From Tubulanus polymorphus (lineage: Eukaryota > Animalia > Nemertea), in NCBI RefSeq assembly GCF_964204645.1, contig NC_134027.1:558001-622000 (forward strand): a DNA stretch of 64,000 nucleotides, written 5' to 3'. Shown piece after piece: positions 2,636 to 60,500 of this stretch. Position numbers and translations under genes: made by a program. Each line of letters starts with the position of its first letter. Positions within the stretch are counted from its first letter, which is position 1. The notes under the pieces were generated by a model. The model saw only the letters and a list, made by a program, of their open reading frames with translations. It was not told the DNA's origin and searched no databases.

Positions 2636-2790
2636 CACTTACTTCCGCGTTTGTGATTTGCATACAAGTAGTTTGAATGTTAAATGTATGAAGCCGCGTG
2701 TTGATTGGTTGAGGTCAGTGCGGTTTACTGAACGATGACCAGCTGTCAGCTGATCGAATCATTCGTTTCACAGACATTACGACGTAAGTA
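2636..2790 (+). promoter_or_regulatory. Candidate promoter and short non-coding first exon (copy B ~46432-46586)
   Basis: ETS-like ACTTCCG ~2641, octamer ATTTGCAT 2656-2663, reverse CCAAT (ATTGG) 2704-2708, Inr-like TCATTC 2759-2764, strong donor GAC|GTAAGT at 2784. The ATG exon begins with an acceptor at 5149, so an upstream exon is required. Confidence 0.5.
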
Positions 2791-5081: not shown

Positions 5082-5152
5082 TCACTGAACCAGAATAAGA
5101 CTGACTGATATATTTTCAAATGATTTAATATTTTTACTTGTTTTTCTAGAAT

Positions 5153-8100
5153 ATGCCAAAAGCTGTAAGAAAAACACGGGGCGCGGGCCCCTCACATTCG
5201 AGCCCGTATAATAAAGTAAGTACAAATTTACTGCTTCCATGCTTATTTATTCATCCCATACTTAGTATTTTGTACCCCTGGGTCCAGTTTCACAAAAAGG
5301 ATTAACGCCTAAATTGATTTAAGATAAACTGAATTAATGAAGAAATTAAATCGATTTAAGAGTTAAACCTGTTTGTGAAACTGGGCCCTGAATTGCATCT
5401 AGAATGAAAAAAAAGAAAAAAAAATATTGAAAATAACGTTGGTGAAATATTTCTGGATCTTTCTGGATTTCTGCTCAATGCATCGTTTAGTAAAATATCG
5501 ATATTCTCTAAAAGTAAAGATATAAGAATAAAAATATTGTATTGAATCGTGATTAGTTACTGTATGCGCTGCTAGTTGTTGCCCAACCCATAGCCTCATT
5601 TCTCTCCATTCTAAATTTGCATTGTTTAACATTGCCTGGTTGCTATGGAAACTATTTATTTAAGTTTCTTTGTGGTATCCATGGCAACAGTAACGTTTAG
5701 GTAGTGGCACCAATTATGGGTCCCAACGTTCCCATGGCGATACATGAGAACATTTATCCTATTTTTGACCTTCATGACGTAAGATGGTAGTGAGTCGATG
5801 ACGTCATTTTCGTCTCGCCACTAATGAAAAAAAAAAGAAATGAAAAAAAAGGAAAAAATCGTTAGAATTACGTTTATGAAATTTTTCTGGATCGGCTAAA
5901 TGTATTGTTCCATTAAATATCGACATTCTCTAAAATCATAGGCATCAATATCAAAATGATGATACAGCAGACTCCGCTTAACTCTGTTCTATTTGGACCA
6001 TTAATTAACCGAATACCGACTTTTTAAATTTTAGGATTTTAACTTTAAGGATCAGAAAATGTGTATGCAATATCAACCGGGTACCGAGTAGGGTGGCCGA
6101 GTCTACTGTAGTCTGCTGCCCCCTCGAATCCATTACCTTATTATCTCTCAATTTGCATTGTTTGACCTCGTCTGGTTGCTATGGAAACTATTAAGTTATA
6201 TCAGGAACGGTTTTTTCGTGGTAACCAGTGGCAACATTTAACAGGCGTGTCCGTCCTAGAGATAAACTGTCTGATTTCACAGCCACATCCGTCCTGGAGA
6301 TAAACTGTTAGATAAACTCTGATTTCGCGTCCGTCCTATTTCTTGTCATTGTATGAATATGTTTTCTCTTTTATAGAGAACTCAACAACAACAACAACAA
6401 CAGCAACAACAACAACAACAACAGCAGCAACAGCAACAAAAATTTGATATTTCTATGTCTGGGATTGACGTAAGTTATCGTAAACGCCTGTTTGAAGTCA
6501 TCATTCTTGAGCTTGAAACCGAAATTTATATATATAGAATATTAAACCCTGCTTCTGCTACTGACAGGTAATGTCCGTCATACATTACTGCATCGTCAAA
6601 TCTATACCAGGGTGCACCCAGCCTGATCGTTCGCATCATCACATGCAAAGGGCTGATTATTTTGGAACCCAGTTTTTATCAGCTGGAACATTCTGCACAT
6701 TCGACCATATTGATTGATAGCCCGTTATAGACGAGTGGAGAAAAACTGGAAAACCAGTTCAATGTTACCTCATGGTAAACATAAGGGAATTTCAATGAGT
6801 TTAACTCACATTTACAGAGTTTTAACGAGGTTAGACTGAATTAACCATTATTCCATCAATGGTGTGTTCTGTCCATCAAGGCTCCTCAGACGCACCGAGC
6901 AGTCAAATGCAGCAGTAGCGCGAGGGTCGGGTGTTCTCGTGTGGGCAGACGGTCCGAACCCCAAAACCATTTACTTACACTATACAAATCAGATCAGGTT
7001 TTTAACATTGTCTTTGATTGTATTTTCAGTTTCTGCCGACAACGCCGCCAAGCGGTACTTCTACGCCGGTAAGTGATAACTATTTTCTAATAAATCACGC
7101 TTATTTCAATTTGTAATTTGAAAATAGAGGGCAGTAGCTGTTTTGCATAAATTATGCTAATTAGGAATAAAATCAAATTCGATTAAGTCTCATCATCGTA
7201 GAAGTCATATATTAATGATGCTATCTCTACAGTTGTCATTTAAATTAAGTGTTATATTTACTACTTAATTTGCTTCATGACCCAAAAGCCTCTACTATAT
7301 AACTACTGGTTTTGTTCTAATCTTGGAGAATTTGCTGCAAAATTAACTTATCATTCGTTAATCAGTTTTTATCGAAAACCCGAATCAGTGATACATGCAT
7401 TCATGAATATCCATCTAATATTTTGTTTTATTTTATCTTTACAGGATTTATCACCGATACAGCACGTGGACGTAAGACATTAAACATTGATCTTGAATTT
7501 TAAGTTCAAACTAATTTATTTTTTATCTCACTCGGGACTATAGTTATTGCGTTCACTTTGCGTCCAGTTGTCTCGGCTAGTTTTTGATTTATCGTGTTGA
7601 TAATTGGTTTATATACTCAAACTACTCAAACTCAAAATATTGGCACAATTGGAATTAAGATGGCGGACTTGTATGACCATTTTTTTCCCCGGCAAAATCA
7701 GCGCTTTAGGATCAATTCTGTTGTTGTTATATTACATTGAAATCAGAGTTTAATATATATCAGTATAGAGCAGGTTTTTGCTCTAGTTATAAATAAAGTT
7801 ATAAATAATCTCATGACATGTTCTGTATATGTGTAGTGAGTTTCAATGTCTTTGGTTCCTTTTAAACCAGGGGGAGTTAAATTTGAAAATGTCAGATCGT
7901 CGAGCATTTCAGACCACTTCCAAAGTGGGTCCCTGCACCCCTAGTTATACCGTTAATATTTTAATAATACATTAATATTTTTATTTGATAGAATATATTG
8001 ATATACCATACATTGATATCGGTCTTGTAATTGGATCAACAACCATGAGATCAAAACACAGCAAATATGAACCTGCTGTGAATCAATAGATTTGTGATAA

Positions 8101-11100
8101 ATGTAATGAAATTGTTATTTTTCATATTGACTTTTTGAGTTAAGGGTCTGTTGTATAAGAGTATTTGGTCTCGCGTGTCAATGTATGATATCAATCTGTT
8201 GTATTTCCTCGTTCCAATGTTTAAAAGGTGTTCGTCACCTTATATTAATATCCTCCGTGTTTAAAAACCTGTGCGTATTACTTTTACCGTTAGATGGCGC
8301 CATAAGTGTGATATTTGATATATGGGATACCCGCAAAACCAGCTATTCCACCAGATGGCGCAACGAGTAGTAGGTCGTTCGTTGTCAAAATTAGTTCATT
8401 TTCGATGAACTTTGAACTGGTTTGAAGAAGAAATACTTTCATTCTTCTACTCTGATATCGGTTTAGTTTTCATTAATAATTGATTCATTTAAGAGAACAA
8501 TTCATTCAGATTTAATTGAAATGTACAAGAAAATCGAACGCAGACGACCAACTATTTACTAGCGACACCTGGTGGATCCTCGCCTGCCATAAGTGGAATC
8601 CTCGATTGCCACAGTAAGACTGCGGGTATCCCATTGTTTGGCGTGTGATAAAGTAAAGTTAGAAAACGAATGTTTAACTTTGTTGTGAAATGAAAGCGTT
8701 TTGGAGATTTTTAAACCGATCAAATCAATATTTTGATATTACGCTTGAAACCCTTCCCACTCATATTCTGCTTACTAAGTATATATTCTAGTTTCCGTGG
8801 AAATCATGGTGAGTGGCGCCATCTATACAGTGGAGTTAGCTTTATAAATCGAGTATGATTCGACAAGTGGCTCCATCTATTCCCTAATACTGAAGCGAGG
8901 TAACCAGCAGCGCCCTCATATACAGGAAATGAACGCCTATCAAGTTTAACAATGCACGGTGTATTGACCACAGCGACCGGTGATAATTATATCAATGTTG
9001 ATTAGCTATTGCCATAGACAGGTCCGTAGCGTTTGACTGGACCAGAACGGGGCCCCCTAACCAAAACAAATTTTGAAAACGTGCCCAGATAAATTGCCTC
9101 TGGGAGATTGATTAACGAGGTTTTGATTGAATGAACAAATTTTAATATTTGTAAGTTTAACATTTCTGTTTTTAATTTTTCTTTGTAAGGAACTGAATTT
9201 TCGAACCCCCCTGAACCGCTTCAAGCTACGTTCCTGATATAGTGCTAGCTATACCTGAATACTTTTCTCTTATTGAAATTGTCTAAAAAACCAGCACCTT
9301 GAACTAATGAACGTCATAATGAAAATGTTTAAAAATTCAACCGTTAACGAATTTGACTAATGTATCTTTTTTATTTTCATTTCTAGCGTCAGTTTGCCTC
9401 AGAGGCTGGGTCGCCGTCGCTTAATGTAAGTATCAGTGACGCCCTCAATCTCACATGCCTCACTTCCCTCCTAATGTAACCATTTTTATGAAATTCCTCA
9501 AGAAAATATATACTGATAATCTTAGAATACACGTTTTTGTACCCAGACCCCTTCATTCTACTGAACTACCGTGTAATCAGTACCTGTTGTGTTCATTTTC
9601 TGTTGCATTGATTTATATATTATTTCTATTTATAGTTGTCAAACAACAGCAGCAGCAGCAGCGCACCCCTCCCGCCGGAGACGCCTCCCGACCTGCAAGC
9701 AAGAAGTAAGTTCAGTCTTCAAATACAATTTCAACGCATTCAATTTTTTGTATGGCGTTAAAACGGTTAAAGTTGTGACTAGTTTTCATAACTCCGTGAC
9801 GTCAGGTGTGAGACAAAATACAATATCATATTTCCATCGAGTACCGGACCCTTTCCTATGTTTTTTGCCAATTTGGATTGAATGATCGCCAGCGGTTTTT
9901 CTATACGACCCGGCTCTGCTGTATTGCATTTAGCCATCCTTTTTCTTGGCGTTTTTTATAAGAAGGTGTTTGATTTTGTCTCTAAGGGATTTAGGAATTT
10001 AAGAGACACTTGTACTCTCTATGCAGTGAGTTTGTTCTGTTTTTGTTCCCTCGTGAATTTTATTTTTGTTTGAATCAAATCAAATCAGTGCATCTTTCTT
10101 GAATTGCGTGTATGTTATAATATTATGTAAGTTATAACGTTAAAATATCTGTTATATTTAAACCGAATATTTAATTGTTGTATTTTGAATGCGATAATGC
10201 CGCTCCCTGCTAAAGTCCAGCGTCGTCGTCGTGAGGGATGCGGTCATCTGTTCGGGCCCTGATTACGTTCTGTGTTCATCCTGTTTGGCTACATCGGGCG
10301 TTATATGAGTTAATCCTTCCTGGACTTGCGGATTGTGGTCGGAAGATCTATGGGTTCGGGCCGAGAAGTCCCAGAAACAGAAAGTACAGTTTCTGTCGAT
10401 GTACCGATTGATGTCTCTATTTCAGAAAGTAACAGCGGTCGCCAGCTGTACTAGCAAGGTTGGTTTCCCAACTCCATTCTCTGAGGAGGATCGCTGGTTC
10501 TCTAGTGCCGGTCAGTCACCAGTCAATCAATGGTTCAGCTGGCATCCCAGGGTACTGAACATCCAGTCCGGTCCGGTCCAGGCATCACTGGGAACTGTAC
10601 ATCCAGTCTGGTCCGGTCCAGGCATCACCGGGTACTGAACATCTGGTCCGGTCCGGCAGCTTTGAGCACCAGTCCATTCCAGACATCACTGGGTACTGAA
10701 CATCCAGTCCGGTCCGGTCCAGGCATCACCGGGTACTGAACATCCAGTCCGGTCCGGTCCAGGCATCACTGGGAACTGTACATCCAGTCCGGTCCGGTCC
10801 AGGCATCACTGGCAACTGTACATCCAGTCCGGTCCGGTCCAGGCATCACTGGGTACTGAACATCTGGTCCGGTCCGGCAGCTTCGAGCACCAGTCCATTC
10901 CAGGCATCACCTGGTACTGAACATCCAGTCCGGTCCGGTCCAGGCATCACTGGGAACTGTACATCCAGTCCGGTCCGGTCCAGGCATCACTGGGAACTGT
11001 ACATCCAGTCCGGTCCGGTCCAGGCATCACTGGGAACTGTACATCCAGTCTGGTCCGGTCCAGGCATCACCGGGTACTGAACATCCAGTCCCGTCCGGTC

Positions 11101-14100: not shown

Positions 14101-17100
14101 TCATAGATATGGAAGAAAAATAATTCCAGGGAACATTTTGAAATTTGTCAGTTATAACCATGGTTTCTCATTGTTAGTATGGTGGTTGTTACCAAGATTG
14201 AGGATTTACCCCTAGGGATAACTTTGATACTCAGTCTATGAAACCGGGTCCTGGAGTATTTGTCTGTTGGTTTACCTCGACGACTGGTTACTAGTACCAA
14301 ACTCGACTATAGAATGTCAGGAGGCGAGGACCGCTGTCGTAGACTTAGTTCACCAGTTCCGCGTAAACTAAGTAAAATCTCACTTGATGCCATCCCAACA
14401 GTTCACATCTCCGGATCAGCACGGTCTTTCCGTCCATGGCTCGAGTAGCCAAACTTCAAGAAGCGTAGTTACCACAAACGAGAGGACAGCTAGTTATCGG
14501 TGACGCCTGTGGCTAAATGCAATACCGCAGTGCCAGGGATCGTATCTCTGGCTATCTACACATTCAGAGAATATTAACTAAAACCATAGGAAAGGGTCAA
14601 GCACTACTCCGAAAAAAAAACTAATTTTATTTCCAAAAAATTATGATATTATATGGATTGCATGCTGTGTGGAAGAAGTTTTCAAAATTATTTAGGAGCT
14701 TATTATAATTTGAATGCATGAATTGAGAGCAATTTGAAATGTATTGATATCCGAAAGTGTCTCCATTGACTTCACTCATTCACCTGATGAAGCTTCTATA
14801 CATTAGTACCCAAAGCTTGTGTGTCAAATAAACTAGTTACACGTCCTATAAAGTACTACTTGTCTCGTTATATATTCTAAACCCCAGTTAACAATTCCAG
14901 TAAGTCAGGTTTAGGGAATAGATATTTAAACCTTGAGATGATACCGATGTGATACAATTCCAGTAAGTCAGGTTTAGGGAATAGATATTTAAACCTTGAG
15001 ATGATACCGATGTGATACAATTCCAGTAAGTCAGGTTTAGGGAATAGATATTTAAACCTTGAGATGATACCGATGTGATACAATTCCAGTAAGTCAGGTT
15101 TAGGGAATAGATATTTAAACCTTGAGATGATACCGATGTGATACAATTCCAGTAAGTCAGGTTTAGGGAATAGATATTTAAACCTTCAGATGATACCGAT
15201 GTGATACAATTCCAGTAAGTCAGGTTTAGGGAATAGATATTTAAACCTTGAGATGATACCGATGTGATACAATTCCAGTAAGTCAGGTTTAGGGAATAGA
15301 TATTTAAACCTTCAGATGAAACCGATGTGATACAATTCCAGTAAGTCAAGTTTAGGGAATAGATATTTAAACCTTCAGATGATACCGATGTGATACAATT
15401 CCAGTAAGTCAGGTTTAGGGAATAGATATTTAAACCTTGAGATGATACCGATGTGATACAATTCCAGTAAGTCAGGTTTAGGGAATAGATATTTAAACCT
15501 TGAGATTAAACCGATGTGATACAATTCCAGTAAGTTAGGTTTAGGGAATAGATATTTAAACCTTGAGATGATACCGATGTAATACAATTCCAGTAAGTCA
15601 GGTTTATTAAGGAATAGATATTTAAACCTTGAGATTAAACCGATGTGATACAATTCCAGTAAGTCAGGTTTAGGGAATAGATATTTAAACCTTGAGATGA
15701 TACCGATGTGATACAATTCCAGTAAGTCAGGTTTAGGGAATAGATATTTAAACCTTGAGATTAAACCGATGTAATACAATTCCAGTAAGTCAGGTTTAGG
15801 GAATAGATATTTAAACCTTGAGATTAAACCGATGTGATACAATTCCAGTAAGTCAGGTTTAGGGAATAGATATTTAAACCTTGAGATTAAACCGATGTAA
15901 TACAATTCCAGTAAGTCAGGTTTAGGGAATAGATATTTAAACCTTGAGATGATACCGATGAATTTAGCAATTTTGAATGAATTAAACCAATATGAGATTT
16001 CGATCCTAAGAATATTGGAAGCTTGTGTTTAACGTTACTAAATAGTAATATTATATAAAGCTAGAAGGACACGAGGGTATCCATTTTTTTGCCCGATCGC
16101 AACGATTAAATTTGCCGGTGAATTTATACGCCCGATACGAGTGGGTACCGATCTATCTATAAATCGGCCGTCACGGTGATTTCGTCGCCCGCCAACATTA
16201 AACATGTTCTATATTTACGCCGGTGTTCGGGTCACTTGTTAATTCGCTCGTCTTGTCGGCAAGCTTAAAAAGATTTAGAAAAAACTACATATTCTTCTTC
16301 CTGAATAAACTGGATTCATCTGGGTTCAGTTTCATGAGACACAGTTCAAACTGCTCTTGAATTTGAGTTTGTAATTAATGTATGTGATTATAATGAATTG
16401 TATTTTTTGTTTTACAGCACTGATATTTAGATTGAGTCGTGCGTTCCGGCGGGAGGAGTTCGTACGCTTATTTTTACCGGAGTGTAAGTAGTTTAACTAT
16501 TTTCATACAATATCATTTAGTGTGACGTGTGTTACTGATCCAGGAATTTTTCCAAGAGGGGGTTCATAAAAATCCTGACTTAAATCTCTAATGATAGCCG
16601 GGGCCTATACGGCATATTGTTTGGCCAAACATAAGATCATATGGTACCGGTTTTTTGGCTTGTCTCGAGTAAGCATTTACATTCCTTCAAGAAAACGAAT
16701 TTTTAAAATTTTTGGTAGCTGATCAGCGGAGTCACGACCCCTGAAACCCTCCCTGGATCCGCGCCTGTGATATCTCCTCAAAATCTAATAAAAACATTCA
16801 ACAAATTAATGCTATAATGACGATATGTAGCCTGTTATATCTGTCTATTTGAATGCATTTGCATAAAGAAATAGTTGCGGAATTATCAACTGCAAATAAC
16901 AGTGTAACCCTAGTGGGTCTTAAGAGACGGCCAGAGCCTTTTTATAGGTTGTTATGGCTCACAACCTGACTTGAGTTAGCTGTACGGACCTGTCAGATTA
17001 GTTACTTCTAGAAGTTATGTTAGTCACATTTTCTGACTATATTCTGGAAAACAGTGGAAGCTTGTATCCACCCCTAGATTAGAACCAATCAGAATAGAAC

Positions 17101-19566
17101 CAATCAGAATAGAACCAATCAGAATAAAACCAATCAGAATAGAACCAATTAGAATAAAACCAATCAGAATAGAACCAATCAGAATAAAACCAATCAGAAT
17201 AAAACTAATCAGAATAGAACCAATCAGAATAGAACCAATCAGAATAGAACCAATCAGAATAAAACCAATCAGAATAGAACCAATCAGAATAAAACCAATC
17301 AGAATAAAACTAATCAGAATAGAACCAATCAGAATAAAACCAATCAGAATAAAACCAATCAGAATAAAAGCAATAAATAGCGTTTTTTTCTCGAGTAGTT
17401 GCCGAAGAAGCATAAAAATTTGATTCAATTTCATTCAGATTTAAACAAACAAATCGAATTTCATTTCATTCAGCGCAAACTTCAAATCTAATTAAAATTT
17501 TGTTCAGTATGAATAAGTTGCAAATCATTGAGAGGAAAAAATAATTAATTGTGTTACTTAAAAAAATCACAATTGTGCTGTGTTTATCAAAACAGGAGAC
17601 CACAGGACCTTTGGTCCTCTAGTATTCTTTTCCTAGTTATTCCAAAAACACTAAAACAGTCCAATCAGCGATGGCTGCCAGACCAACACGATTACATTGA
17701 AATCAAACTTAAGTAACATCAGGCGCCCCCTGTTGGAATAATATTCATAGCCGTAGCATCGAAACCATTCGACTTGTTGTTTAATGTATTTCTCTCTATT
17801 TTTATTTTACAGTTCTGCAAGTTTTAGAAGACTGCCCCTTTGAGGATTTGGTGGGGGAATTCAAAAGAAACTTGGTTCCCGATAGGATATTACCACCACC
17901 GGTTAATCCTATGTCGCCCGCTGCTGCCCCTCCCCCACGTCCATTAAATTCGCCTCAGCAGCGGCCTGTCAGACAGCCGCCCCCGGCCGCCACTCGTTCG
18001 TCAGACAGAGTCCGGGGACGGCTGTTTGAAGGAGATCTGACGGAGGTAAGAATCTTTATTTGTTTTCATATTTTATTCAGGATATCAGTTGAAGTTCAGC
18101 AAATAAATTACCAGACCTGTAAACAGAAGAGTAGTCATAAATTTCCATTTGCGGGTAAAACCCCATAGTCGAAAACCTTCGGTTATTGATCTATATCTGC
18201 TTAAGACCAATGGTTGTACACACGAGTGCGAAAACTTATCGCTCAAACTTTGATTGTATCCATGGTAACGCGTACAGTATACTATGCGTGACTTACCGTT
18301 TCCTATCACTGGAATACAATACTGTTTTAGACCATGAGCGCCATCTGCGGCGGTCATAACGGACTGAGTGGTGATTGGCTGAAATGCTCGTCTACCGTGG
18401 TGACGATTATTCGGTGTTACACGTGCAGCAGACACGTCTCTGAATATCTAACATTTGATTGTTGTAACTCATCGGGAAAAATATGTTTATGAGTCGATTT
18501 TTTGTCGAAATTTTGTTCGGCAGAAAATTGGCTGCGTACGTCAAGAAGGCGGCTGATATTTGTATCGTGTGACCCCTCGTCCCGGTAATATGCCGACCCA
18601 CGTACACCTGAGACCAGTTGCATAGTCAGAGCTTAGAATTAAGACCGTTTTAAGACCAACTTAGTTCTATAGCCAATCTAATAACTTAAGACCAGTCTTT
18701 AGATTTAAGACCACTTTTGGACTTAAGTCTTGACCATGGAATCGGCCCCAGATGCTTATTCCGCTGTATTGGATGCTGACGTGCTCGTGTCTTCCAGCAA
18801 TGTTGTTATTCACCAAAAATATCATGTTTTGTTCGAATAACACGATTCATCTGAGTCTGGGTTTAACGGATGACACGTTCAAACAGAACTACGAAATCAA
18901 TATCAGAAGTCCTTTTATATTGAAACGGTCCCAGAAGTCCCTGTTATAATGGGTACTTTTTCAAAAAAAGTAACGAGAACTCCGATGGCTTTCCGTATTC
19001 ACCGAACTATTTCTATGAGCGTCACTCGTAGATTTACCGAAACGCCACCTTGTGGCACGATATCCTAACTACGTATAGGTGTTTTATTTGCTGAATCGCT
19101 GGTTTCTCATTCTGATTTTTTATGTAGTGTTTAATTTTATACTAAACAAATTTTTCACTTTTTCTCTTTACAGACACGACCACCGCCAAAAAAAACTAGA
19201 ACAAAAAGGAAAAGAAAAGTTGCGGTCGTCGTGGCTCCGCAGGGAGGAGGAGCAAGAGTGGTCCCGGCGGATGGTGCGGCTGACGAAGGTAATCGGGAGG
19301 AAGGGGAGGGGATAAATAGGAAGCGGCCGAGGAGGGATGGTGGTGGGGCTGGGGATGGTGCGGGTCCTGCTCCTCCTGCTCCTCCATCCGTATCTCGGGC
19401 GGTCACTCGTTCACTCGCCAAAAAGCTGGCGAGTGAACGAGTGGCCCGAGAGGTAGAGGTGGTGGCCCGACATACGGATGGAATGTGGGAGGAGCGGCTT
19501 CGTTCGGGGACAATTCCGGATTTGTTAACTGATTTAAAAAATATTCTTTCAGTGAAGGGATATTAG
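5153..19566 (+). CDS. Spliced gene, copy A, ~340-aa putative nuclear protein of unknown family. Coding exons 5153-5215, 6377-6469, 7030-7068, 7445-7471, 9387-9425, 9636-9705, 16418-16483, 17813-18045, 19174-19566
   Basis: Every exon has a pyrimidine tract plus YAG acceptor, and all eight donors are GTAAG. Intron phases (0,0,0,0,0,1,1,0) join into one open frame: MPKAVRKTRGAGPSHSSPYNK/RTQ19KFDISMSGID/FLPTTPPSGTSTP/DLSPIQHVD/RQFASEAGSPSLN/LSNNSSSSSAPLPPETPPDLQAR/TLIFRLSRAFRREEFVRLFLPE/FLQVLEDCPFEDLVGEFKRNLVPDRILPPP...RVRGRLFEGDLTE/TRPPPKKTRTKRKRKVAVVVAPQGGG...SVKGY*. Differences from copy B preserve frame and are largely synonymous or conservative. Confidence 0.88.
5281..5387. mobile_element. 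MITE, PIF/Harbinger-like (copy B ~50435-50541)
   Basis: TIRs GGTCCAGTTTCACAAA / TTTGTGAAACTGGGCC, flanked by CTG on both sides (CWG target duplication). Confidence 0.75.
8322..8634. mobile_element. MITE-like inverted-repeat element
   Basis: ATGGGATACCCGCA ... TGCGGGTATCCCAT termini, plus inner inverted pair CCACCAGATGGCGC / GCGACACCTGGTGG. Confidence 0.65.
10541..11430. repeat. 40-bp minisatellite inside the DIRS gag region
   Basis: Unit GGCATCACTGGGAACTGTACATCCAGTCCGGTCCGGTCCA, ~21 units. Confidence 0.96.
11583..12064. repeat. 35-bp minisatellite, ~14 units (copy B 57765-58281)
   Basis: Unit TTCACGTCGAGGGACCGTTTAGGAAGTTCA(T/C)GTCT. Confidence 0.96.
12315..12915 (+). mobile_element. Non-autonomous interspersed repeat (Helentron/HINE-like) nested in the DIRS element
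   Basis: T-run start, short palindrome TTTTTACCCCT..AGGGGTAAAAA and internal ~170-bp degenerate repeats containing CAAGATGGCCGCC. Confidence 0.5.
13225..13395. repeat. ~27-bp repeat CAGCTCCGGCTCCGGCAGCTCAAGGTT (copy B expanded, 59448-59752)
   Basis: Visible tandem units at the end of the gag-like region. Confidence 0.9.
14091..14251. mobile_element. Harbinger-like MITE interrupting the RT
   Basis: Imperfect TIRs GGGCTGGGTTTCATAGA / TCTATGAAACCGGGTCC with CAG/CTG flanks. It lies between the LSTA and YLDD motifs. Confidence 0.6.
14892..15960. repeat. 63-bp minisatellite, ~17 units (copy B 61259-61884, ~10 units)
   Basis: Unit ACAATTCCAGTAAGTCAGGTTTAGGGAATAGATATTTAAACCTTGAGATGATACCGATGTGAT. 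Confidence 0.97.
17081..17369. repeat. 15-bp repeat A(G/A)AACCAATCAGAAT, ~19 units
   Basis: Visible tandem units. Only 2 units at the copy-B site (63664-63694). Confidence 0.96.
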
Positions 19567-20048
19567 GTGCCTTGAACGCATGAGTCGTTCATGCGCGCCT
19601 AATATGCCTTCACTGAAAGAAAATCAACTATAACATGTACCACATATTTTTTGATTTAATTTTAGTCCAATTCCACAATTATTTCGGCTTTCAATAGTGT
19701 CTTCAATTCTTTAAAGCCCAAAGCACCTTTTTGACTCAACATCCAGTATGAAGGTGGTCGGGAATTGGGCCTGTTTTCTTCGATTTTTGTATCCCGCCCA
19801 GCATACTGGTTGTTGACTCGAAAAGGTGCTCGCTCTGGGAGCTTATCAAAGGCAGGTGATGGGAAAGGTGCCATCACACACTCTCCTTTGATAAGTTTCC
19901 TAGAGTGTCACGGGCTTTAACGGATTGAATTCACTATAATACCAATTTTCCAAAATCAATTTAATTTCTTTCAGGCCATTCTTTTTCCATGTTTTTCTGG
20001 TACATGTTATGGTTGATTTCCATTTTCGAAAATCCGGAATTGAAGCCG
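19495..20048. mobile_element. Fold-back/MITE-like insertion overlapping the stop codon
   Basis: Inverted pairs CAATTCCGGATTT / AAATCCGGAATTG and AAATCAACTATAACATGTACCA / TGGTACATGTTATGGTTGATTT. Internal hairpin at 19544-19621. Confidence 0.6.
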
Positions 20049-20179
20049 TTCGAAGTCGGGGGGATGGTGGTGGGGTTGGGTTAGTTTAGGGTTCCTCTCT
20101 GATTACCTTCTTTAGCTCATCATCCGTGCAGGTGGCGCTTGCTCTTCTAGCCGGTGTTCCCTGGGGTAAACATTTTAAA

Positions 20180-26790: not shown

Positions 26791-26954
26791 TCTGGAGTTG
26801 TAATAGTGTTGTGTATTTGCGTAGTGGATCAAGTGGAAGGATTTTAAGTGTATTTGGTGACTTTAATTCGTTCGCATCCAACAGAATCAACAAAGACATT
26901 ACAAAAAACGACAAAAAATGATTGAATGTAAATGCATTGAATTTAGGTTTGTTG

Positions 26955-50235: not shown

Positions 50236-50306
50236 TCACTGAACCAGAATAAGACTGACTGATATATTTTCAAATGATTTAATATTTTTACTTGTTTTTC
50301 TAGAAG

Positions 50307-51552
50307 ATGCCAAAAGCTATTAAAAAAACGCGGGGCGCGGGCCCCTCACATTCGAGCCCGTATAATAAAGTAAGTACAAATTTACTGCTTCCATGCTTAT
50401 TTATTCATCCAATACTTAGTATTTTGTACCCCTGGGTCCAGTTTCACAAAAAGGATTAACGCCTAAATCGATTTAAGATAAACTGAATTAATGAAGAAAT
50501 TAAATCGATTTAAGAGTTAAACCTGTTTGTGAAACTGGGCCCTGAATTGCATCTAGAATGAAAAATAAGAAAAAAAAATATTGAAAATAACGTTGGTGAA
50601 ATATTTCTGGATCTTTCTGGATTTCTGCTCAATGCATCGTTTAGTAAAATATCGATATTCTCTAAAAGTAAAGATATAAGAATAAAAATATTGTATTGAA
50701 TCGTGATTAGTTACTGTATGCGCTGCTAGTTGTTGCCCAACCCATAGCCTCATTTCTCTCCATTCTAAATTTGCATTGTTTAACATTGCCTGGTTGCTAT
50801 GGAAACTATTTATTTAAGTTTCTTTGTGGTATCCATGGCAACAGTAACGTTTAGGTAGTGGCACCAATTATGGGTCCCAACGTTCCCATGGCGATACATG
50901 AGAACATTTATCCTATTTTTGACCTTCATGACGTAAGATGGTGGTGAGTCGATGACGTCATTTTCGTCTCACCACTAATGAAAAAAAAAAAATGAAATGA
51001 AAAAAAAGGAAAAAATGGTTAGAATTACGTTTATAAAATTTTTCTGGATCGGCTAAATGTATTGTTCCATTAAATATCGACATTCTCTAAAATCATAGGC
51101 ATCAATATCAAAATGATGATACAGCAGACTCCGCTTAACTCTGTTCTATTTGGACCATTAATTAACCGAATACCGACTTTTTAAATTTTAGGATTTTAAC
51201 TTTAAGGATCAGAAAATGTGTATGCAATATCAACCGGGTACCGAGTAGGGTGGCCGAGTCTACTGTAGTCTGCTGCCCCCTCGAATCCATTACCTTATTA
51301 TCTCTCAATTTGCATTGTTTGACCTCGTCTGGTTGCTATGGAAACTATTTAGTTATATCAGGAACGGTTTTTTCGAGGTAACCAGTGGCAACATTTAACA
51401 GGCGTGTCCGTCCTAGAGATAAACTGTCTGATTTCACAGCCACATCCGTCCTGGAGATAAACTGTTAGATAAACTCTGATTTCGCGTCCGTCCTATTTCT
51501 TGTCATTGTATGAATATGTTTTCTCTTTTATAGGGTACAGCGCAGCAACAGC

Positions 51553-51583
<31 letters not shown>

Positions 51584-54500
51584 GCAACAAAAATTTGATA
51601 TTTCCATGTCTGGGATTGACGTAAGTTATCGTAAACGCCTGTTTGAAGTCATCATTCTTGAGCTTGAAACCGAAATTTATATATATAGAATATTAAACCC
51701 TGCTTCTGCTACTGACAGGTAATGTCCGTCATACATTACTGCATCGTCAAATCTATACCAGGGTGCACCCAGCCTGATCGTTCGCATCATCACATGCAAA
51801 GGGCTGATTATTTTGGAACCCAGTTTTTATCAGCTGGAACATTCTGCACATTCGACCATATTGATTGATAGCCCGTTATAGACGAGTGGAGAAAAACTGG
51901 AAAACCAGTTCAATGTTACCTCATGGTAAACATAAGGGAATTTCAATGAGTTTAACTCACATTTACAGAGTTTTAACGAGGTTAGACTGATTAACCATTA
52001 TTCCATCAATGGTGTGTTCTGTCCATCAAGGCTCCTCAGACGCACCGAGCAGTCAAATGCAGCAGTAGCACGAGGGTCGGGTGTTCTCGTGTGGGCAGAC
52101 GGTCCGAACCCCAAAACCATTTACTTACACTATACAAATCAGATCAGGTTTTTAACATTGTCTTTGATTGTATTTTCAGTTTCTGCCGACAACGCCGACA
52201 ACGCCGCCAAGCGGTACTTCTACGCCGGTAAGTGATAACTATTTTCTAATAAATCACGCTTATTTCAATTTGTAATTTAAAAATAGAGGGCAGTAGCTGT
52301 TTTGCATAAATTATGCTAATTAGGAATAAATTCAAATTCGATTAAGTCTCATCATCGTAGAAGTCATATATTAATGATGCTATCTCTACAGTTGTCATTT
52401 GAATTAAGTGTTATATTTACTACTTAATTTGCTTCATGACCCAAAAGCCTCTACTATATAACTACTGGTTTTGTTCTAATCTTGGAGAATTTGCTGCAAA
52501 ATTAACTTATCATTCGTTAATCAGTTTTTATTGAAAACCTGAATCAGTGATACATGCATTCATGAATATCCATCTAATATTTTGTTTTATTTTATCTTTA
52601 CAGAACATATCACCGATACAGCACGTGGACGTAAGACATTAAACATTGATCTTGAATTTTAAGTTCAAACTAATTTATTTTTTATCTCACTCGGGACTAT
52701 AGTTATTGCGTTCACTTTGCGTCCAGTTGTCTCGGCTAGTTTTTGATTTATCGTGTTGATAATTGGTTTATATACTCAAACTACTCAAACTCAAAATATT
52801 GGCACAATTGGAATTAAGATGGCGGACTTGTATGACCATTTTTTTCCCCGGCAAAATCAGCGCTTTAGGATCAATTCTGTTGTTGTTATATTACATTGAA
52901 ATCAGAGTTTAATATATATCAGTATAGAGCAGGTTTTTGCTCTAGTTATAAATAAAGTTATAAATAATCTCATGACATGTTCTGTATATGTGTAGTGAGT
53001 TTCAATGTCTTTGGTTCCTTTTAAACCAGGGGGAGTTAAATTTGAAAATGTCAGATCGTCGAGCATTTCAGACCACTTCCAAAGTGGGTCCCTGCACCCC
53101 TAGTTATACCGTTAATATTTTAATAATACATTAATATTTTTATTTGATAGAATATATTGATATACCATACATTGATATCGGTCTTGTAATTGGATCAACA
53201 ACCATGAGATCAAAACACAGCAAATATGAACCTGCTGTGAATCAATAGATTTGTGATAAATGTAATGAAATTGTTATTTTTCATATTGACTTTTTGAGTT
53301 AAGGGTCTGTTGTATAAGAGTATTTGGTCTCGCGTGTCAATGTATGATATCAATCTGTTGTATTTCCTCGTTCCAATGTTTAAAAGGTGTTCGTCACCTT
53401 ATATTAATATCCTCCGTGTTTAAAAACCTGTGCGTATTACTTTTACCGTTAGATGGCGCCATAAGTGTGATATTTGATATATGGGATACCCGCAAAACCA
53501 GCTATTCCACCAGATGGCGCAACGAGTAGTAGGTCGTTCGTTGTCAAAATTAGTTCATTTTCAATGAACTTTGAACTGGTTTGAAGAAGAAATACTTTCA
53601 TTCTTCTACTCTGATATCGGTTTAGTTTTCATTAATAATTGATTCATTTAAGAGAACAATTCATTCAGATTTAATTGAAATGTACAAGAAAATCGAACGC
53701 AGACGACCAACTATTTACTAGCGACACCTGGTGGATCCTCGCATGCCATAAGTGGAATCCTCGATTGCCACAGTAAGACTGCGGGTATCCCATTGTTTGG
53801 CGTGTGATAAAGTAAAGTTAGAAAACGAATGTTTAACTTTGTTGTGAAATGAAAGCGTTTTGGAGATTTTTAAACCGATCAAATCAATATTTTGATATTA
53901 CGCTTGAAACCCTTCCCACTCATATTCTGCTTACTAAGTATATATTCTAGTTTCCGTGGAAATCATGGTGAGTGGCGCCATCTATACAGTGGAGTTAGCT
54001 TTATAAATCGAGTATGATTCGACAAGTGGCTCCATCTATTCCCTAATACTGAAGCGAGGTAACCAGCAGCGCCCTCATATACAGGAAATGAACGCCTATC
54101 AAGTTCAACAATGCACGGTGTATTGACCACCGCGACCGGTGATAATTATATCAATGTTGATTAGCTATTGCCATAGACAGGTCCGTAGCGTTTGACTGGA
54201 CCAGAACGGGGTCTCCTAACCAAAACAAATTTTGAAAACGTGCCCAGATAAATTGCCTCTGGGAGATTGATTAACGAGGTTTTGATTGAATGAACAAATT
54301 TTAATATTTGTAAGTTTAACATTTCTGTTTTTAATTTTTCTTTGTAAGGAACTGAATTTTCGAACCCCCCTGAACCGCTTCAAGCTACGTTCCTGATATA
54401 GTGCTAGCTATACCTGAATACTTTTCTCTTATTGAAATTGTCTAAAAAACCAGCACCTTGAACTAATGAACGTCATAATGAAAATGTTTAAAAATTCAAC

Positions 54501-57500
54501 CGTTAATGAATTTGACTAATGTATTTTTTTTATTTTCATTTCTAGCGTCAGTTTGCCTCAGAGGCTACGTCGCCGTCGCTTAATGTAAGTATCAGTGACG
54601 CCCTCAATCTCACATGCCTCACTTCCCTCCTAATGTAACCATTTTTATGAAATTCCTCAAGAAAATATATACTGATAATCTTAGAATACACGTTTTTGTA
54701 CCCAGACCCCTTCATTCTACTGAACTACCGTGTAATCAGTACCTGTTGTGTTCATTTTCTGTTGCATTGATTTATATATTATTTCTATTTATAGTTGTCA
54801 AACAACAGCAGCAGCAGCAGCGCACCCCTCCCGCCGGAGACGCCTCCCGACTTGCAAGCAAGAAGTAAGTTCAGTCTTCAAATACAATTTCAACGCATTC
54901 AATTTTTTGTATGGCGTTAAAACGGTTAAAGTTGTGACTAGTTTTCATAACTCCGTGACGTCAGGTGTGAGACAAAATACAATATCATATTTCCATCGAG
55001 TACCGGACCCTTTCCTATGTTTTTTGCCAATTTGGATTGAATGATCGCCAGCGGTTTTTCTATACGACCCGGCTCTGCTGTATTGCATTTAGCCATCCTT
55101 TTTCTTGGCGTTTTTTATAAGAAGGTGTTTGATTTTGTCTCTAAGGGATTTAGGAATTTAAGAGACACTTGTACTCTCTATGCAGTGAGTTTGTTCTGTT
55201 TTTGTTCCCTCGTGAATTTTATTTTTGTTTGAATCAAATCAAATCAGTGCATCTTTCTTGAATTGCGTGTATGTTATAATATTATGTAAGTTATAACGTT
55301 AAAATATCTGTTATATTTAAACCGAATATTTAATTGTTGTATTTTGAATGCGATAATGCCGCTCCCTGCTAAAGTCCAGCGTCGTCGTGAGGGATGCGGT
55401 CATCTGTTCGGGCCCTGATTACGTTCTGTGTTCATCCTGTTTGGCTACATCGGGCGTTATATGAGTTAATCCTTCCTGGACTTGCGGATTGTGGTCGGAA
55501 GATCTATGGGTTCGGGCCGAGAAGTCCCAGAAACAGAAAGTACAGTTTCTGTCGATGTACCGATTGATGTCTCTATTTCAGAAAGTAACAGCGGTCGCCA
55601 GCTGTACTAGCAAGGTTGGTTTCCCAACTCCATTCTCTGAGGAGGATCGCTGGTTCTCTAGTGCCGGTCAGTCACCAGTCAATCAATGGTTCAGCTGGTT
55701 CACTGTCCGAATGGTATTTCCCAGATATCGCACAGGAACTCGGGTTCGGTCCGGGCTACTCCGAGCAATGGTCCGGTCCAGGCATCACCGGGAACTGTAC
55801 ATCCAGTCCGGTGCGGTCACCTCTGAGCACCGGTCCAGTCCAGGCATCACCAGTTACTGAACATCTTGTCCGGTCCGGGCGGCCTCAAGCTACGGTTGGG
55901 TCCAGGCATCACAGGGTACTGAACATCTGGTCCCGTCCAGGCATCACCGGGTACTGAACATCCAGTCCGGTCCGGTCCAGGCATCACTGGGAACTGTACA
56001 TCCAGTCCGGTCCGGTCCAGGCATCACTGGGAACTGTACATCCAGTCCGGTCCGGTCCAGGCATCACTGGGAACTGTACATCCAGTCTGGTCTGGTCCAG
56101 GCATCACCGGGTACTGAACATCTGGTCCGGTCCGGCAGCTTTGAGCACCAGTCCATTCCAGGCATCACCGGGTACTGAACATCCAGTCCGGTCCGGTCCA
56201 GGCATCACTGGGAACTGTACATCCAGTCCGGTCCGGTCCAGGCATCACTGGGTACTGAACATCTGGTCCAGTCCGGCAGCTTTGAGCACCAGTCCATTCC
56301 AGGCATCACTGGGTACTGAACATCCAGTCCGGTCCAGGCATCACCGGGTACTGAACATCCAGTCCGGTCCGGTCCAGGCATCACCGGGTACTGTACATCC
56401 AGTCCGGTCCGGTCCAGGCATCACTGGGAACTGTACATCCAGTCCGGTCCGGTCCAGGCATCACCGGGTACTGAACATCCAGTCCGGTCCGGTCCAGGCA
56501 TCACTGGGTACTGAACATCCAGTCCGGTCCGGTCCAGGCATCACTGGGAACTGTACATCCAGTCCGGTCCGGTCCAGGCATCACTGGGAACTGTACATCC
56601 AGTCCGGTCCGCTCCAGGCATCACCGGGTACTGAACATCCAGTCCGGTCCGGTCCAGGCATCACTGGGTACTGAACATCCAGTCTGGTCCGGTCCAGGCA
56701 TCACTGGAAACTGTACATCCAGTCCGGTCCGGTCCAGGCATCACTGGGAACTGTACATCCAGTCCGGTCCGGTCCAGGCATCACCGGGTACTGAACATCT
56801 GGTTCGGTCCAGGCATCACCGGGTACTGAACATCCAGTCCGGTCCGGTCCAGGCATCACTGGGAACTGTACATCCAGTCCGGTCCGGTCCAGGCATCACT
56901 GGGAACTGTACATCCAGTCAGGTCCGGTCCAGGCATCACTGGGAACTGTACATCCAGTCCGGTCCGGTCCAGGCATCACCGGGTACTGAACATCTGGTCG
57001 GTCCAGGCATCACCGGGTACTGAACATCCAGTCCGGTCCGGTCCAGGCATCACCGGGTACTGAACATCTGGTCGGTCCAGGTATCACCGGGTACTGAACA
57101 TCCAGTCCGGTCCGGTCCAGGCATCACTGGGTACTGAACATCCAGTCTGGTCCGGTCCAGGCATCACTGGGTACTGAACATCCAGTCTGGTCCGGTCCAG
57201 GCATCACTGGGAACTGTACATCCAGTCCGGTCCGGTCCAGGCATCACTGGGAACTGAACATCCAGTCCGGTCCGGTCCAGGCATCACCGGGTACTGAACA
57301 TCCAGTCCGGTCTGGTCCAGGCATCACTGGGTGCTGAACATCCAGTCTGGTCCGGTCCAGGCATCACTGGGAACTGTACATCCAGTCCGGTCCGGTCCGG
57401 TCCAGGCATCACTGGGAACTGTACATCCAGTCCGGTCCGGCCAAGGCATCACTGGGTGCTGAACATCCAGTCTGGTCCGGTCCAGGCATCACTGGGTACT

Positions 57501-60500
57501 GAACATCCAGTCTGGTCCGGTCCAGGCATCACTGGGAACTGTACATCCAGTCCGGTCCGGTCCAGGCATCATCAGGTACTGAACATCCAGTCTGGTCCGG
57601 GCGGCCTGGCATCAATGTTTCGAATTTGAAACATAGTTATTATGGCTCTAGGTTTGGTAGAGGGCGCTCTTCTACCAGACGCAGGAGTAAGGTCACCTTC
57701 ACTGATATCGAGGATGGATCGAGAGATTATGATTGATTCTGTAGGAACCATCATCATTCATCAGTTCACGTCGAGGGACCGTTTAGGAAGTTCATGTCTT
57801 TCACGTCGAGGGACCGTTTAGGAAGTTCACGTCTTTCACGTCTAGGGACCGTTTAGGAAGTTCATGTCTTTCACGTCGTGGGACCGTTTAGGAAGTTCAC
57901 GTCTTTCACGTCGTGGGACTGTTTAGGAAGTTCATGTCTTTCATGTCGAGGGACCGTTTAGGAAGTTCATGTCTTTCACGTCGAGGGACTGTTTAGGAAG
58001 TTCATGTCTTTCATGTCGAGGGACCGTTTAGGAAGTTCATGTCTTTCACGTTGAGGGACCGTTTAGGAAGTTCATGTCTTTCACGTCGAGGGACCGTTTA
58101 GGAAGTTCACGTCTTTTACGTCGAGGGACCGTTTAGGAAGTTCATCTCTTTCACGTCGAGGGACCGTTTAGGAAGTTCACGTCTTTCACGTCGAGGGACC
58201 GTTTAGGAAGTTCATGTCTTTCACGTCGAGGGACCCTTTAGGAAGTTCATGTCTTTCACATCGAGGGACCGTTTAGGAAGTCGTCACAATAATCGGGATT
58301 TCCGTGATTTCGAAAGTAAGATGTTATTGTCATTGTAAGCTACCGCAGTTACAGGTAAGCCTATTCTTGATTGCCCGGTTAGAAGTTCAGTTATTCGGAA
58401 TTCTGACTCTGAATTTCTGAGGGGTAGCATCTGATTTCAACGAGGATCTAGTTCCTGCAGCAATAAGCTTCGGGTTGCCGCTCACAACGGAAGCTCGTAA
58501 CACGGTTAGCCATGCCTGCAGGGGATATGCTATTTTTTACCCCTCAGCCATAGGACGCAAGGGGTAAAAAATCACTTATGTCCGGACGGGCGGGCTGTTT
58601 GTTTTTGACATATACAGGTCATCCAAGATGGCCGCCACAGCCATTGCAATGTGTGAAATAGCCATTTGAAGCTTGTTATCGCTCTACAGACTTAAGTTTT
58701 TCATTGATTTTCTTGTGACTTGGTTTGTTTGTTTGAGGTGTGAGATGGATGAGCCCTATTATTTTTGACATATATAGGTCATCCAAGATGGCCGCCACGG
58801 TTGTTTTAATGTGTGAAATAGCTATATTTTGGAGCTTGTTTTCCACTGTACAATCTACAGTTTTATACTGATTTTCTTATCACGTGCTATGTGGATTGAA
58901 GGCATAAGGATCGATGAACTCTACTGTGTTTGATGTGTGTAGGCCACCACAGTTATATCAGTGTCTTGAATAGCCGATTTGGAGCTTGTTACTGCTCTAA
59001 GATGTAGATGCTTAGAGGATTATAATTTTATTCATACTTGTACTGTGGTTTATTTATGGTGGTCAGAGGATGAGCCCTATTACAATTTTGCATTCTCTAC
59101 TTGACTCACTGGTCAAGGGTTAATATCTAGTTTGTTAAATGTGGAGAAACTCGTGCTAAGTCCTCGGCAGGTCCCCATGTCGGTGAATCACCACCACCCC
59201 CACCCCCCGGACTTTGATCTCAATATTTTGCGTGAATCGTCAGCAGTTTCAAGAGAATGGGCTCGATTAGGTGTGGAACAATTGGAATCCTCGGTTGCCA
59301 CAGTCGAACCTAGAGTATTAAGAGCTCAATTAGGTTCGTCTTTGCGTCTCTTCTCCGGTTGGAGTGCTTCAGTTTTGACCAAAGGGAGGAATATTCGAGA
59401 GGTGCAGATTCAAGTCAACCATGCGGACTCCGTGAAAGAAGCGTTCTGGTCCAGCTCCAGCTCCGACAGCTGAAGGTTCAGCTCCAGCTCCGGCAGCTCA
59501 AGGTCCACCTCCGGCCGCGGCCGCTCAAGGTTCAGCTCCGGCTCTGGCAGCTGAATGTTCAGCTCCGGCTCCGGCCGCTCAAGGTTCAGCTCCGGCTCCG
59601 GCAGCTCAAGGTCCAGCTCCTGCTCCGGCCGCTCAAGGTTCAGCTCCGGCTCCGGCAGCTCAAGGTTCAGCTCCGGCTCCGGCCGCTCAAGGTCCAGCTC
59701 CGGCTCCGGCAGCTCAAGGTTCAGCTCCAGCTCCGGCCGCTCAAGGTTCAGCCCGAACTCACACAATGCCATCTCAAGCATCTTACTTTCTCAAGCGGCT
59801 ACTGGTGGTTGGAGAACAAGTGCACAGCTCCAACATTCTCGTGCCCCTTCTGGTCAGAATAATTCTAGTACATATCAGGGAATGCTCCTAAAAGGAGCTC
59901 TTCCTCTCGGAGAAACTCAAAATGAATGCTCGGGGCCAGTGAGAGGTTGTCTGCAGCAGGCAGCCACTGGTCCGTCGGTCCCGGGTCGTATCACGGAGGC
60001 TACTGTCTTCAATTCTGAACACCTCTCGACATGCGCCCGAAAGCAGATCAGGAGACACTAATCTCGTCAGCTCTCAAAGATCTGGCCAAAAAGAGAGCAA
60101 TAGAACCAGTACGCGACGAAGCCACATCCGGCTGGTTTTCATGAAAATTTATGCTCCTGAAAACCACAGGGCGTCGATGGACTGTCATTCCTCGAGCGGC
60201 ACCTGGATATCCCGAGGCTTCCGATGACTAAAACAGGGAGGTAATTCAAGGTCTCCGTCGAGGTTAATGGGCGGCTGCATTGGACCTGAAAGATGCATAT
60301 TTTCAGGTTCCTGTTCACCCGAAATCCTGTCAATTTTACAGAATAAAAGTTGAAAGGCTGCCAGTTCCAGTTCAGGTCTCTTCCAATCGGCCTCAGTACA
60401 GCCCACGCCCTGGGTATTTACCAGCTTGGGTCAAGTCCAGAAGGTACATTACAGTCCAGGGCTGGGTTTCATAGATATGGAAGAAAAATAATTCCAGGGA

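Follow-up and report, generated by a model that had tools for sequence, protein, structure and literature searches.

Exons outpace introns in divergence between tandem copies of a predicted nuclear gene of Tubulanus polymorphus, with an excess at silent sites

Two copies of a predicted multi-exon gene in a 64,000-nt stretch of the Tubulanus polymorphus genome (contig NC_134027.1, 558,001–622,000; hereafter the window) differ about fourteen times more in their exons than in their introns. Such a pattern is commonly taken as a sign of positive selection. In this gene the excess is silent and its edges lie at splice sites. Because silent sites carry the excess, the exon differences would be either old or acting at the nucleotide level. 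The explanation that we place first, giving it about an even chance, is concerted evolution in which selection keeps old exon variants and conversion homogenises the introns, as in the L/M opsins but to an extreme degree.

Gene organization

Two direct repeats spaced about 45 kb apart lie in the window: copy A, which extends from position 1 to about 17630, and copy B, which extends from 43713 to the last letter. The gene predicted in copy A has nine exons and a single open frame of 340 codons (340 aa) reaching 19566 (Table 1). The earlier note had ended the gene at 9705 and had missed exon 7; three more exons with GT-AG borders carry the frame onward 3' of exon 6. Exons 8 and 9 of copy B fall outside the window, and the A/B exon comparison covers exons 1–7. 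All exons are predictions from the DNA sequence and not from RNA. The gene, a predicted nine-exon orphan, likely sits in several near-identical tandem units.

Table 1. Predicted features of the two copies, in window coordinates
Feature	Position	Strand	Remarks
Putative non-coding first exon	2716..2783	+	Sequence reading: GTAAGT donor at end, CCAAT-like box upstream
Copy A exon 1	5150..5215	+	ATG at 5153; 5 changes vs B
Copy A exon 2, polyQ	6377..6469	+	Patch in first 12 nt, 6-nt indel and one silent change vs B
Copy A exon 3	7030..7068	+	B has 9-nt in-frame duplication; reads show other versions at 7059 and 7062
Copy A exon 4, 27 nt	7445..7471	+	First 4 nt hold 3 changes vs B
Copy A exon 5	9387..9425	+	2 adjacent changes vs B (G>T)
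Copy A exon 6	9636..9705	+	One silent change vs B; phase 1 at end
Copy A exon 7	16418..16483	+	14 changes: two 16-nt patches flanking identical 29-nt core
Intron 7, 5' part	16484..17111	+	53 identical nt, then 86–89% A/B identity with large indels
Copy A exon 8	17813..18045	+	Pro-rich, S/T-P sites
Copy A exon 9, coding part	19174..19566	+	Basic clusters KRKRK and RKRPRR; stop 19564–19566
Branched RNA fold-back	19369..20057	+	Covers end of coding sequence and 3' UTR
Copy B exons 1–7	50304..62406	+	Open frame, intact splice sites
Copy B exons 1–4	50304–50369, 51534–51620, 52180–52227, 52604–52630	+	
Copy B exons 5–7	54546–54584, 54795–54864, 62341–62406	+	

The 5' part of intron 7 is an old-looking island and consists in part of a high-copy repeat.

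Exon and intron divergence

Across exons 1–6, 20 of 325 aligned sites (6.2%) differ between the copies, against 23 of 4221 (0.54%) in introns 1–5 (Fisher p=1.5e-12), and no exon differs more than exon 7 (14/66 sites). Each of the changes that the earlier note had listed for exons 1–6 was found in its place in the alignment: 5152 T>G before the ATG and 5165, 5167, 5169 and 5176 in exon 1; RT>GTA, Q19>Q16 and TCT>TCC in exon 2; the 9-nt duplication in exon 3; GAT TTA>AAC ATA in exon 4; GGG>ACG in exon 5; and CTG>TTG, which is silent, in exon 6. The ten or so differences reported for the intron at 5216–6376 are nine substitutions and one indel. The proposed exon enrichment held under permutation (p about 1e-4), with an effect larger than had been noted. 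Placing six exon-sized intervals at random 200,000 times gave an expectation of 2.7 substitutions, whereas the exons hold 21 (p=1.3e-4). Of 33 clustered events, 9 lie in exons 1–6 against 2.0 expected (p=2.8e-4), and for all six exons being changed p was 3.6e-4. The putative non-coding first exon has zero A/B differences in the alignment.

The splice sites form a step at which exon divergence falls to background, with no decay into the introns: 11 of 84 exon-edge sites differ, versus 0 of 280 intron sites within 20 nt and 3 of 420 at 21–50 nt. Changes reach 10 of 42 sites in the first six bases of the exons. The 456 nt upstream of exon 7 show an intron divergence of 2.2%, versus 0.6% overall. 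Exon changes are grouped in patches of 2–27 nt, and 26 of 35 have a neighbouring change within 2 nt, versus 8 of 70 elsewhere (p=2e-10); the lone changes at 5152, 6454 and 9693 are near the intron rate. CpG decay or exon methylation was rejected as the cause, CpG-type changes being rarer in exons (2/35) than outside them (16/70).

Silent sites and codon pattern

For exons 1–7 together dS is 0.22 and dN 0.05 (dN/dS 0.23); the ratio is about 0.35 in exons 1–6 and 0.11 in exon 7, where dS is about 1.0 and dN 0.11. Silent sites alone exceed the intron rate in exons 1–6 (p=3e-6) and in exon 7 (p=1e-16), and replacement sites of exons 1–6 do so too (7.5/207, p=4e-5). In the predicted frame of exon 7, eight of ten changed codons are silent, the other five frames giving 2/11, 0/10, 0/11, 1/10 and 4/10. 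Two-step silent switches (AGA/CGG and CGC/AGA) travel together. All six multi-substitution patches include an amino-acid change and none is a silent-only multi-base patch, a count that is not diagnostic, about 40% of changed codons being non-silent. The replacements are conservative (V>I, R>K, L>I, D>N), as had been claimed, and lie mostly within predicted disordered sequence. RNA folding found exons 1–7 unstructured (z −0.5 and −0.2), on which ground compensatory pairing behind the patches was rejected.

Exon versions in independent DNA reads

Raw genomic DNA reads from a different sample and study, possibly pooled (X5), contain both A and B letters. Among the variants listed (40 of 71), exon 7 shows at least 13 of the 14 copy-B letters and at least seven further variants, at shares of 5–88%; two of the changes added by the reads are E>K. 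The B letter occurs in 136 of 197 reads at 5169 (exon 1) and in 125 of 161 at 9693 (exon 6); the X5 variants listed there (40 of 598) include no B letter for exons 2, 4 or 5. Read-level exon enrichment rests on the listed 40 of 71 variants, with p=0.055 if the other 31 all lie in unique flanks.

Linked letters shift as blocks, 16419/20/23/24 at 42–44%, 16429/31 at 52–54% and 16464/65/67 at 34–36%. At 16434 (G/A) and 16467 (C/T), 33 nt apart, all four combinations occur, as judged from copy A, two X4 contigs and the X5 shares (0.76+0.42>1), recurrent mutation being possible. Depth over exon 7 (161–186) matches that of its flanks (143–187), with no exon-only excess, so that the exon-7 versions appear to sit in like introns. 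Compared with k/n copies, the shares reject two chromosomal copies at 18 of 23 sites and four at 5 of 23, unless the sample was pooled. Mosaic exon versions are carried by some six chromosomal copies at the least, or by a pooled sample, in which case some of these versions are alleles rather than paralogs.

Against copy A, long contigs of two other data sets show differences at 55 of 4009 sites (X1) and 48 of 3808 sites (X3), mostly intronic. In X4, whose library type is unrecorded and may be RNA, the alignment of a 125-nt contig starts at precisely base 1 of exon 7, with 30 unaligned letters ahead of it, and that of a second contig starts at 16426 after 34 unaligned letters. Two further data sets, X6 and X7, gave no alignment to exon 7, which counts neither way.

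Fold-back RNA

A fold-back of about 700–930 nt is predicted over the last exon and 3' UTR (z=−19.75, 20 shuffles). When the exon is folded alone, an outer helix pairs 19246–19302 with 20092–20148; hexamers resembling poly(A) signals lie at 20179 and 20187. The plus strand folds at −451 kcal/mol versus −381 for the minus strand, with 35 G-U pairs and no A-C 1x1 mismatch; the long strand-specific fold-back of hairpin loci is present as a prediction. The unit contains several strong plus-strand fold-backs, one across the gene's own coding sequence, with predicted hairpins at 19369–20148 and 26951–28188, and a 59-nt piece at 41128–41185 is antisense-like to exon 9 (83%). A set of 887 22-mers from 17 fold-back stretches showed no advantage in pairing with exons 1–7 over shuffled exons (best ratio 0.64, against 0.53–0.75 for controls that used a subset of 150 guides). 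Of 35 seed matches, 13 overlapped a changed site, versus about 10 expected, and the arms are not complementary to the variable exons. A search of the window against Rfam gave no match at the gathering score and seven sub-threshold matches on 17700–20200.

Protein features and homology searches

The earlier prediction of a nuclear protein agrees with what we found: no signal peptide, no membrane helix (highest 19-residue hydropathy 0.85), an N-terminal hydropathy below −0.7 and basic NLS-like clusters. The only hydrophobic-rich segment begins in exon 7 and spans exons 6–8. Single-exon queries with exons 9 and 8, in themselves weak evidence, returned no homologs; Pfam had nothing near a cut-off for four protein pieces, and an Atlas search gave no usable match. 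A representative-search match of exon 8 to a 52-residue tandem repeat (about 30% identity over 37–39 residues) was set aside as a summed-repeat artefact. In viral contigs 122 pattern matches yielded none confirmed, and the exact 29-nt core of exon 7 had no occurrence in metagenome contigs. The acidic-patch motifs of LANA (M6-R7-L8-R9) and IE1 (M483..R486) are described in PMC9040877; as a weak lead, ERLRSG and AVTRS in exon 9 may resemble them, both lacking the methionine.

Origin of the exon islands

Since silent sites lie far above introns and dN is below dS, the signature matches that of the opsins, in which exons exceed introns at both site classes and dN is not above dS. Under concerted evolution the exon patches would be old lineages, as the joint travel of two-step silent switches suggests, and gene copies would exchange DNA at fine scale. 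Conversion would pass through identical intron DNA and halt at mismatch clusters, leaving sharp islands, each kept by an amino-acid difference whose diversity selection favours. That diversity would most likely concern the self/non-self specificity of a nuclear protein of the poison-antidote or driver-suppressor type, which is the weakest step. The rise of intron divergence beside exon 7 and the block-wise shifts of linked letters speak for this reading. Against it, replacements so conservative make poor candidates for lasting selection at each of six patches, and the non-decay of divergence into introns fits a process at the mRNA level at least as well.

Such a process, a possible but clearly less probable alternative, would act on mRNA after splicing. 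An amplified and selfish nuclear gene with a fold-back RNA of its own would diversify every exon as far as the splice sites, mostly at silent positions, by small-RNA escape or by RNA-templated exchange; codon recoding, here a natural one, would then serve as a weapon in genomic conflict. Escape from piRNA or siRNA silencing through clustered, mostly silent recoding, by which only spliced sequence diverges, is unlikely when taken singly. It would account for the step at splice sites, the silent excess with its two-step Arg/Leu switches, the change within the three untranslated nucleotides of exon 1 and the many coexisting exon versions, and both the plus-strand fold-backs and the piece antisense-like to exon 9 speak for it; PMC10618873 reviews how small RNAs suppress amplified drivers. 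Against it, the fold-back 22-mers pair with exons 1–7 no better than controls, silent-only multi-base patches are absent from the A/B comparison, the putative non-coding first exon is identical in both copies, and a literature search listed no natural case, one paper in it using recoding purely as a laboratory tool.

In the other form, also unlikely, RNA or cDNA would serve as the template for passing exon pieces from one family member to another, which would confine exchange to exons, with duplication of whole units keeping the introns young. The sharp edges suit it, as does the X4 contig beginning at the first base of exon 7, where a genomic copy would align through the AG; the X4 contigs would be processed copies if X4 is DNA, but it may be RNA. 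Changes in the first six bases of exons fall where a cDNA lacks upstream homology, both copies keep every intron compared, no intron-skipping joint is among those listed (15 of 211), and X5 depth has no exon-only excess.

An exon-targeted error-prone process, raising mutation 15- to 90-fold and followed by purifying selection, is quite improbable. It would produce the observed clustering of exon changes, but the second sample shows variants as shared blocks at middle shares, and the CpG counts exclude exon methylation.

Exons faster than introns are known from conotoxin, snake PLA2 and abalone lysin genes, which encode secreted proteins, and with these the earlier note had compared the locus. 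Positive selection on amino acids after recent duplication, as in this toxin model, is disfavoured and very improbable. The replacement-site excess of exons 1–6 and the two E>K changes of exon 7 count for it; a dN/dS of 0.11–0.35 with a silent excess does not bear out fast protein change, and a dS near 1.0 in exon 7 is impossible in the time that gave 0.6% intron divergence.

The least probable account is an assembly artefact: RNA-based polishing would change exons alone, two haplotypes placed in tandem could differ by 0.6% in introns, which is within the range of alleles, and the 40 of 598 variants listed lack B letters for exons 2, 4 and 5, but independent raw DNA reads hold copy-B letters beside A letters (5169, 9693 and 13 of 14 exon-7 sites), so polishing is out for exon 7, the X5 shares reject two or four chromosomal copies unless pooled, and the exon/intron contrast stays real even with A and B as alleles.

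Intron homing, which sets young introns in old exons (cf. PMC3192709), was rejected, the introns being ordinary GT-AG introns of unrelated content.

The suggestion of an intragenomic conflict gene is a fair lead and plausible, given a predicted orphan in several copies with mosaic exons and a fold-back RNA in its unit. It is not required, since the non-conflict L/M opsins give a like exon/intron pattern.

Comparison with known systems

In PLA2 and conotoxins the dN/dS of the mature protein is near or above 1, against 0.11–0.35 here. The viper three-finger toxins undergoing ASSET share with our gene short exon segments that diverge sharply while introns stay alike (PMC2474615). They are secreted, and their segments drastically change the protein (12.5–50% identity; PMC2474615); here the signal peptide is absent, and codons change with little effect on the protein. 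The ASSET mechanism is stated there as unknown, and the present locus makes the question of segment switching testable.

The wtf genes of fission yeast form, as our gene appears to do, a lineage-restricted, multi-exon, multi-copy and mosaic family. Their clustered copies stay distinct despite conversion, and recombination yields new specificities (PMC5478263, PMC13160552). In wtf the proteins span the membrane several times, each gene type yields two transcripts and drive is proven, whereas our gene lacks a membrane helix and is known from sequence alone; the passages concerned in PMC5478263 describe no young introns around old exons. With the hairpin-RNA suppressors of Drosophila (PMC10618873) it shares a long strand-specific fold-back beside or within an amplified young family, but in our case the last exon of the gene itself makes up the fold-back, and the arms show no match to exons 1–7.

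The closest likeness in site pattern is to the catarrhine L/M opsins, also tandem copies. In gibbons their exons exceed introns at silent and replacement sites with dN not above dS, which is explained by intron conversion and selection against conversion in exons (PMC3213168); such peaks of divergence under conversion are reviewed in PMC3924837. In the opsins the silent divergence is 6.1–6.4%, found in a few long exons that hold known tuning residues (PMC3213168). Here, by contrast, the protein is an orphan, all seven compared exons (27–93 nt) differ, and more than two versions coexist, with apparent recombination over a distance of 33 nt. With exons of 27–66 nt holding versions up to a dS of about 1 amid introns 99% alike, the family offers a fine-grained natural test of the minimum length of a selected island where copies undergo gene conversion, and of a possible shaping of silent sites by small RNAs or RNA templates.

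Divergence between the two gene copies

The repeated unit of this eukaryotic DNA is approximately 44-45 kb long and is present in two direct copies inside the window (A and B), which share 98.6-99.4% identity across most unique stretches and differ in the length of their tandem arrays. An earlier note had claimed, from the sequence alone, that divergence between A and B is restricted to exons. All of the changes it listed are present in our alignment, and the claim is confirmed and extended. Permutation tests gave exon enrichment of substitutions (p=1.3e-4), of clustered events (p=2.8e-4) and of hits to six of six exons (p=3.6e-4). Exons 1-6 carry substitutions at 20/325 sites versus 23/4221 in introns 1-5 (p=1.5e-12), and upstream DNA differs at 20/3159. 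Intron divergence peaks around exon 7.

With the polyQ tract and duplicated codons excluded, dS and dN are 0.105 and 0.037 for exons 1-6, and 0.217 and 0.050 for all seven exons; exon 7 gives 1.02 and 0.108. Silent exon sites by themselves exceed the intron rate of 0.6%. A neighbouring change lies within 2 nt for 26 of 35 exon changes versus 8/70 elsewhere, and CpG-type changes make up 2/35 in exons versus 16/70 outside. By manual count all six multi-substitution patches include at least one replacement, and the three isolated changes stay close to background. Divergence drops in a step from exon to intron: 11/84 sites differ at exon edges, 0/280 within 20 nt into the introns (a zero that splice signals explain in part) and 3/420 at 21-50 nt. 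The first six sites of exons are changed more often than the last six (10/42 vs 1/42, p=0.007; starts 5150, 6377, 7445 and 16418), a bias which may come partly from donor-site constraint.

Predicted gene and protein

The frame runs on past exon 6 (phase 1) through three further GT-AG exons to a stop codon at 19564-19566, giving a model of nine coding exons and 340 residues. Both exon indels preserve the frame, and that of B is open across its seven visible exons. Eight of the ten changed codons in exon 7 are silent in the predicted frame and at most 4/10 in the others, which supports coding independently of RNA data. The alignment of one contig from a further set (X4, library type not on record) starts at the exact first base of exon 7, preceded by 30 foreign letters, which fits a spliced molecule. 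A common contig of another set (X1) leaves copy A at 7055, in exon 3, for 38 other letters and then goes back to 6870. These letters end like an exon-3 donor; the contig carries a further version of exon 3, possibly a tandem duplicate.

The predicted protein has a polyQ tract, eight S/T-P sites, Pro-rich linkers, basic clusters and, near residues 105-155, a segment rich in hydrophobic residues; neither a signal peptide nor a membrane helix was found among its 340 residues. This absence and the basic clusters favour the nuclear protein proposed in the earlier note, for which an intragenomic conflict gene is a plausible lead; that silent sites carry the excess speaks against fast protein change of the toxin type. 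The note's interpretation is supported in part. Single-exon queries returned no relatives, a weak negative because they split the central segment.

Exon versions in independent reads

In raw genomic reads from another sample and study (X5), the B letter occurs in 136/197 reads at 5169 and 125/161 at 9693, and the B letters of exons 2, 4 and 5 are not among the matches listed (best 40 of 598 rows). For exon 7 (best 40 of 71 rows) the shares of 5-88% cover at least 13 of 14 B letters together with at least seven others, five silent and two E>K. Diversity there is 0.113, versus 0.017 in the 178 nt upstream (same rows), a contrast with p=0.055 under the worst placement of unlisted rows. Unless X5 is pooled, the shares are incompatible with two or four chromosomal copies and compatible with six or more. 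The X5 depth of 80-180 gives no copy number. Linked letters shift together in blocks; copy A, two X4 contigs and the X5 shares between them show the four possible combinations of 16434 with 16467, suggesting exchange within 33 nt, with recurrent mutation as the alternative. X5 has no exon-only excess of depth, hence no large pool of old paralogs carrying other introns.

Fold-backs and repeats

A fold-back is predicted for the 3' UTR together with the final 65 codons (z=-19.75). It is more stable on the plus strand, has 35 G-U pairs, and its 1x1 loops contain no A-C mismatch. The helices between 19369 and 20057 survive folding of the whole predicted mRNA, and the outermost helix of the fold-back is lost; a search of Rfam gave no family at gathering score. 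The hairpins of the 260-bp unit show both-sided changes at 0/60 consensus pairs, and several pairs are kept despite one-sided change. The antisense piece may derive from the 3' arm of another copy, as a relic, and the stop-filled segments perhaps belong to a spliced non-coding transcript from the spacer between gene copies.

Positions of the unit copies, repeats and predicted fold-backs
Feature	Position	Strand	Remarks
Copy A	window start to ~17630		
Copy B	43713 to window end		
Decayed retroelement, intron 6	12888-14500	+	both copies; LDLKDAYF-like reverse-transcriptase motif; presumably DIRS-like
Intronic high-copy repeats	5264-5445, 8358-8721, 9814-9995, 16533-16640		X5 depth several to thirty times flanks
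Inverted repeat	5280-5388		within repeat 5264-5445
Branched RNA fold-back, coding end and 3' UTR	19369-20148	+	one 20-bp stem within coding sequence
Pre-miRNA-like stems (four)	19401-19446, 19545-19620, 19722-19830, 19831-19907	+	
Array of 18-24-bp repeats	21321-21963		several frames open
Short stop-filled, repeated segments (many)	23857-25480, 35300-41830	+	between TTTCAG and GT(A/G)(T/A)GT-like splice signals
260-bp unit, 4.5 tandem copies	26951-28188	+	two to three hairpins each (z=-6.4)
600-bp inverted pair	30157-30754, 32676-33271		identity 81%
Antisense piece, 59 nt	41128-41185		83% antisense to exon 9 coding 19286-19344

Origin of the pattern

The pattern fits old exon variants inside young introns. 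Concerted evolution is the known route, by which conversion would proceed between copies and selection would oppose it in exons; we give this explanation an even chance. Conversion is generally known to halt at mismatch clusters and may do so here.

Two rivals act at the mRNA level; what keeps them alive is the abrupt change at the splice sites, together with conservative replacements and the predicted fold-back RNAs of the unit. Escape from small RNAs is unlikely, as the unit's hairpins lack pairing to exons 1-7; RNA-templated exchange is about equally unlikely, given that first bases of exons are changed and introns retained. Hypermutation is improbable, plain positive selection still more so, and artefact the least credible of all.

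Under concerted evolution opposed in exons, the variants may be kept for specificity. Our best guess, by analogy with the fission yeast wtf family, is that this could serve a nuclear poison-antidote or driver-suppressor system. Among the papers that our searches listed, none showed a precedent for a nuclear orphan gene with all micro-exons silently diverged so deeply. The concerted-evolution route is exemplified by gibbon L/M opsins, primate tandem colour-vision genes, where silent and replacement divergence both exceed that of introns and dN stays at or below dS (PMC3213168; PMC3924837); this gene is alike in that its silent exon divergence surpasses that of introns, with dN here below dS.
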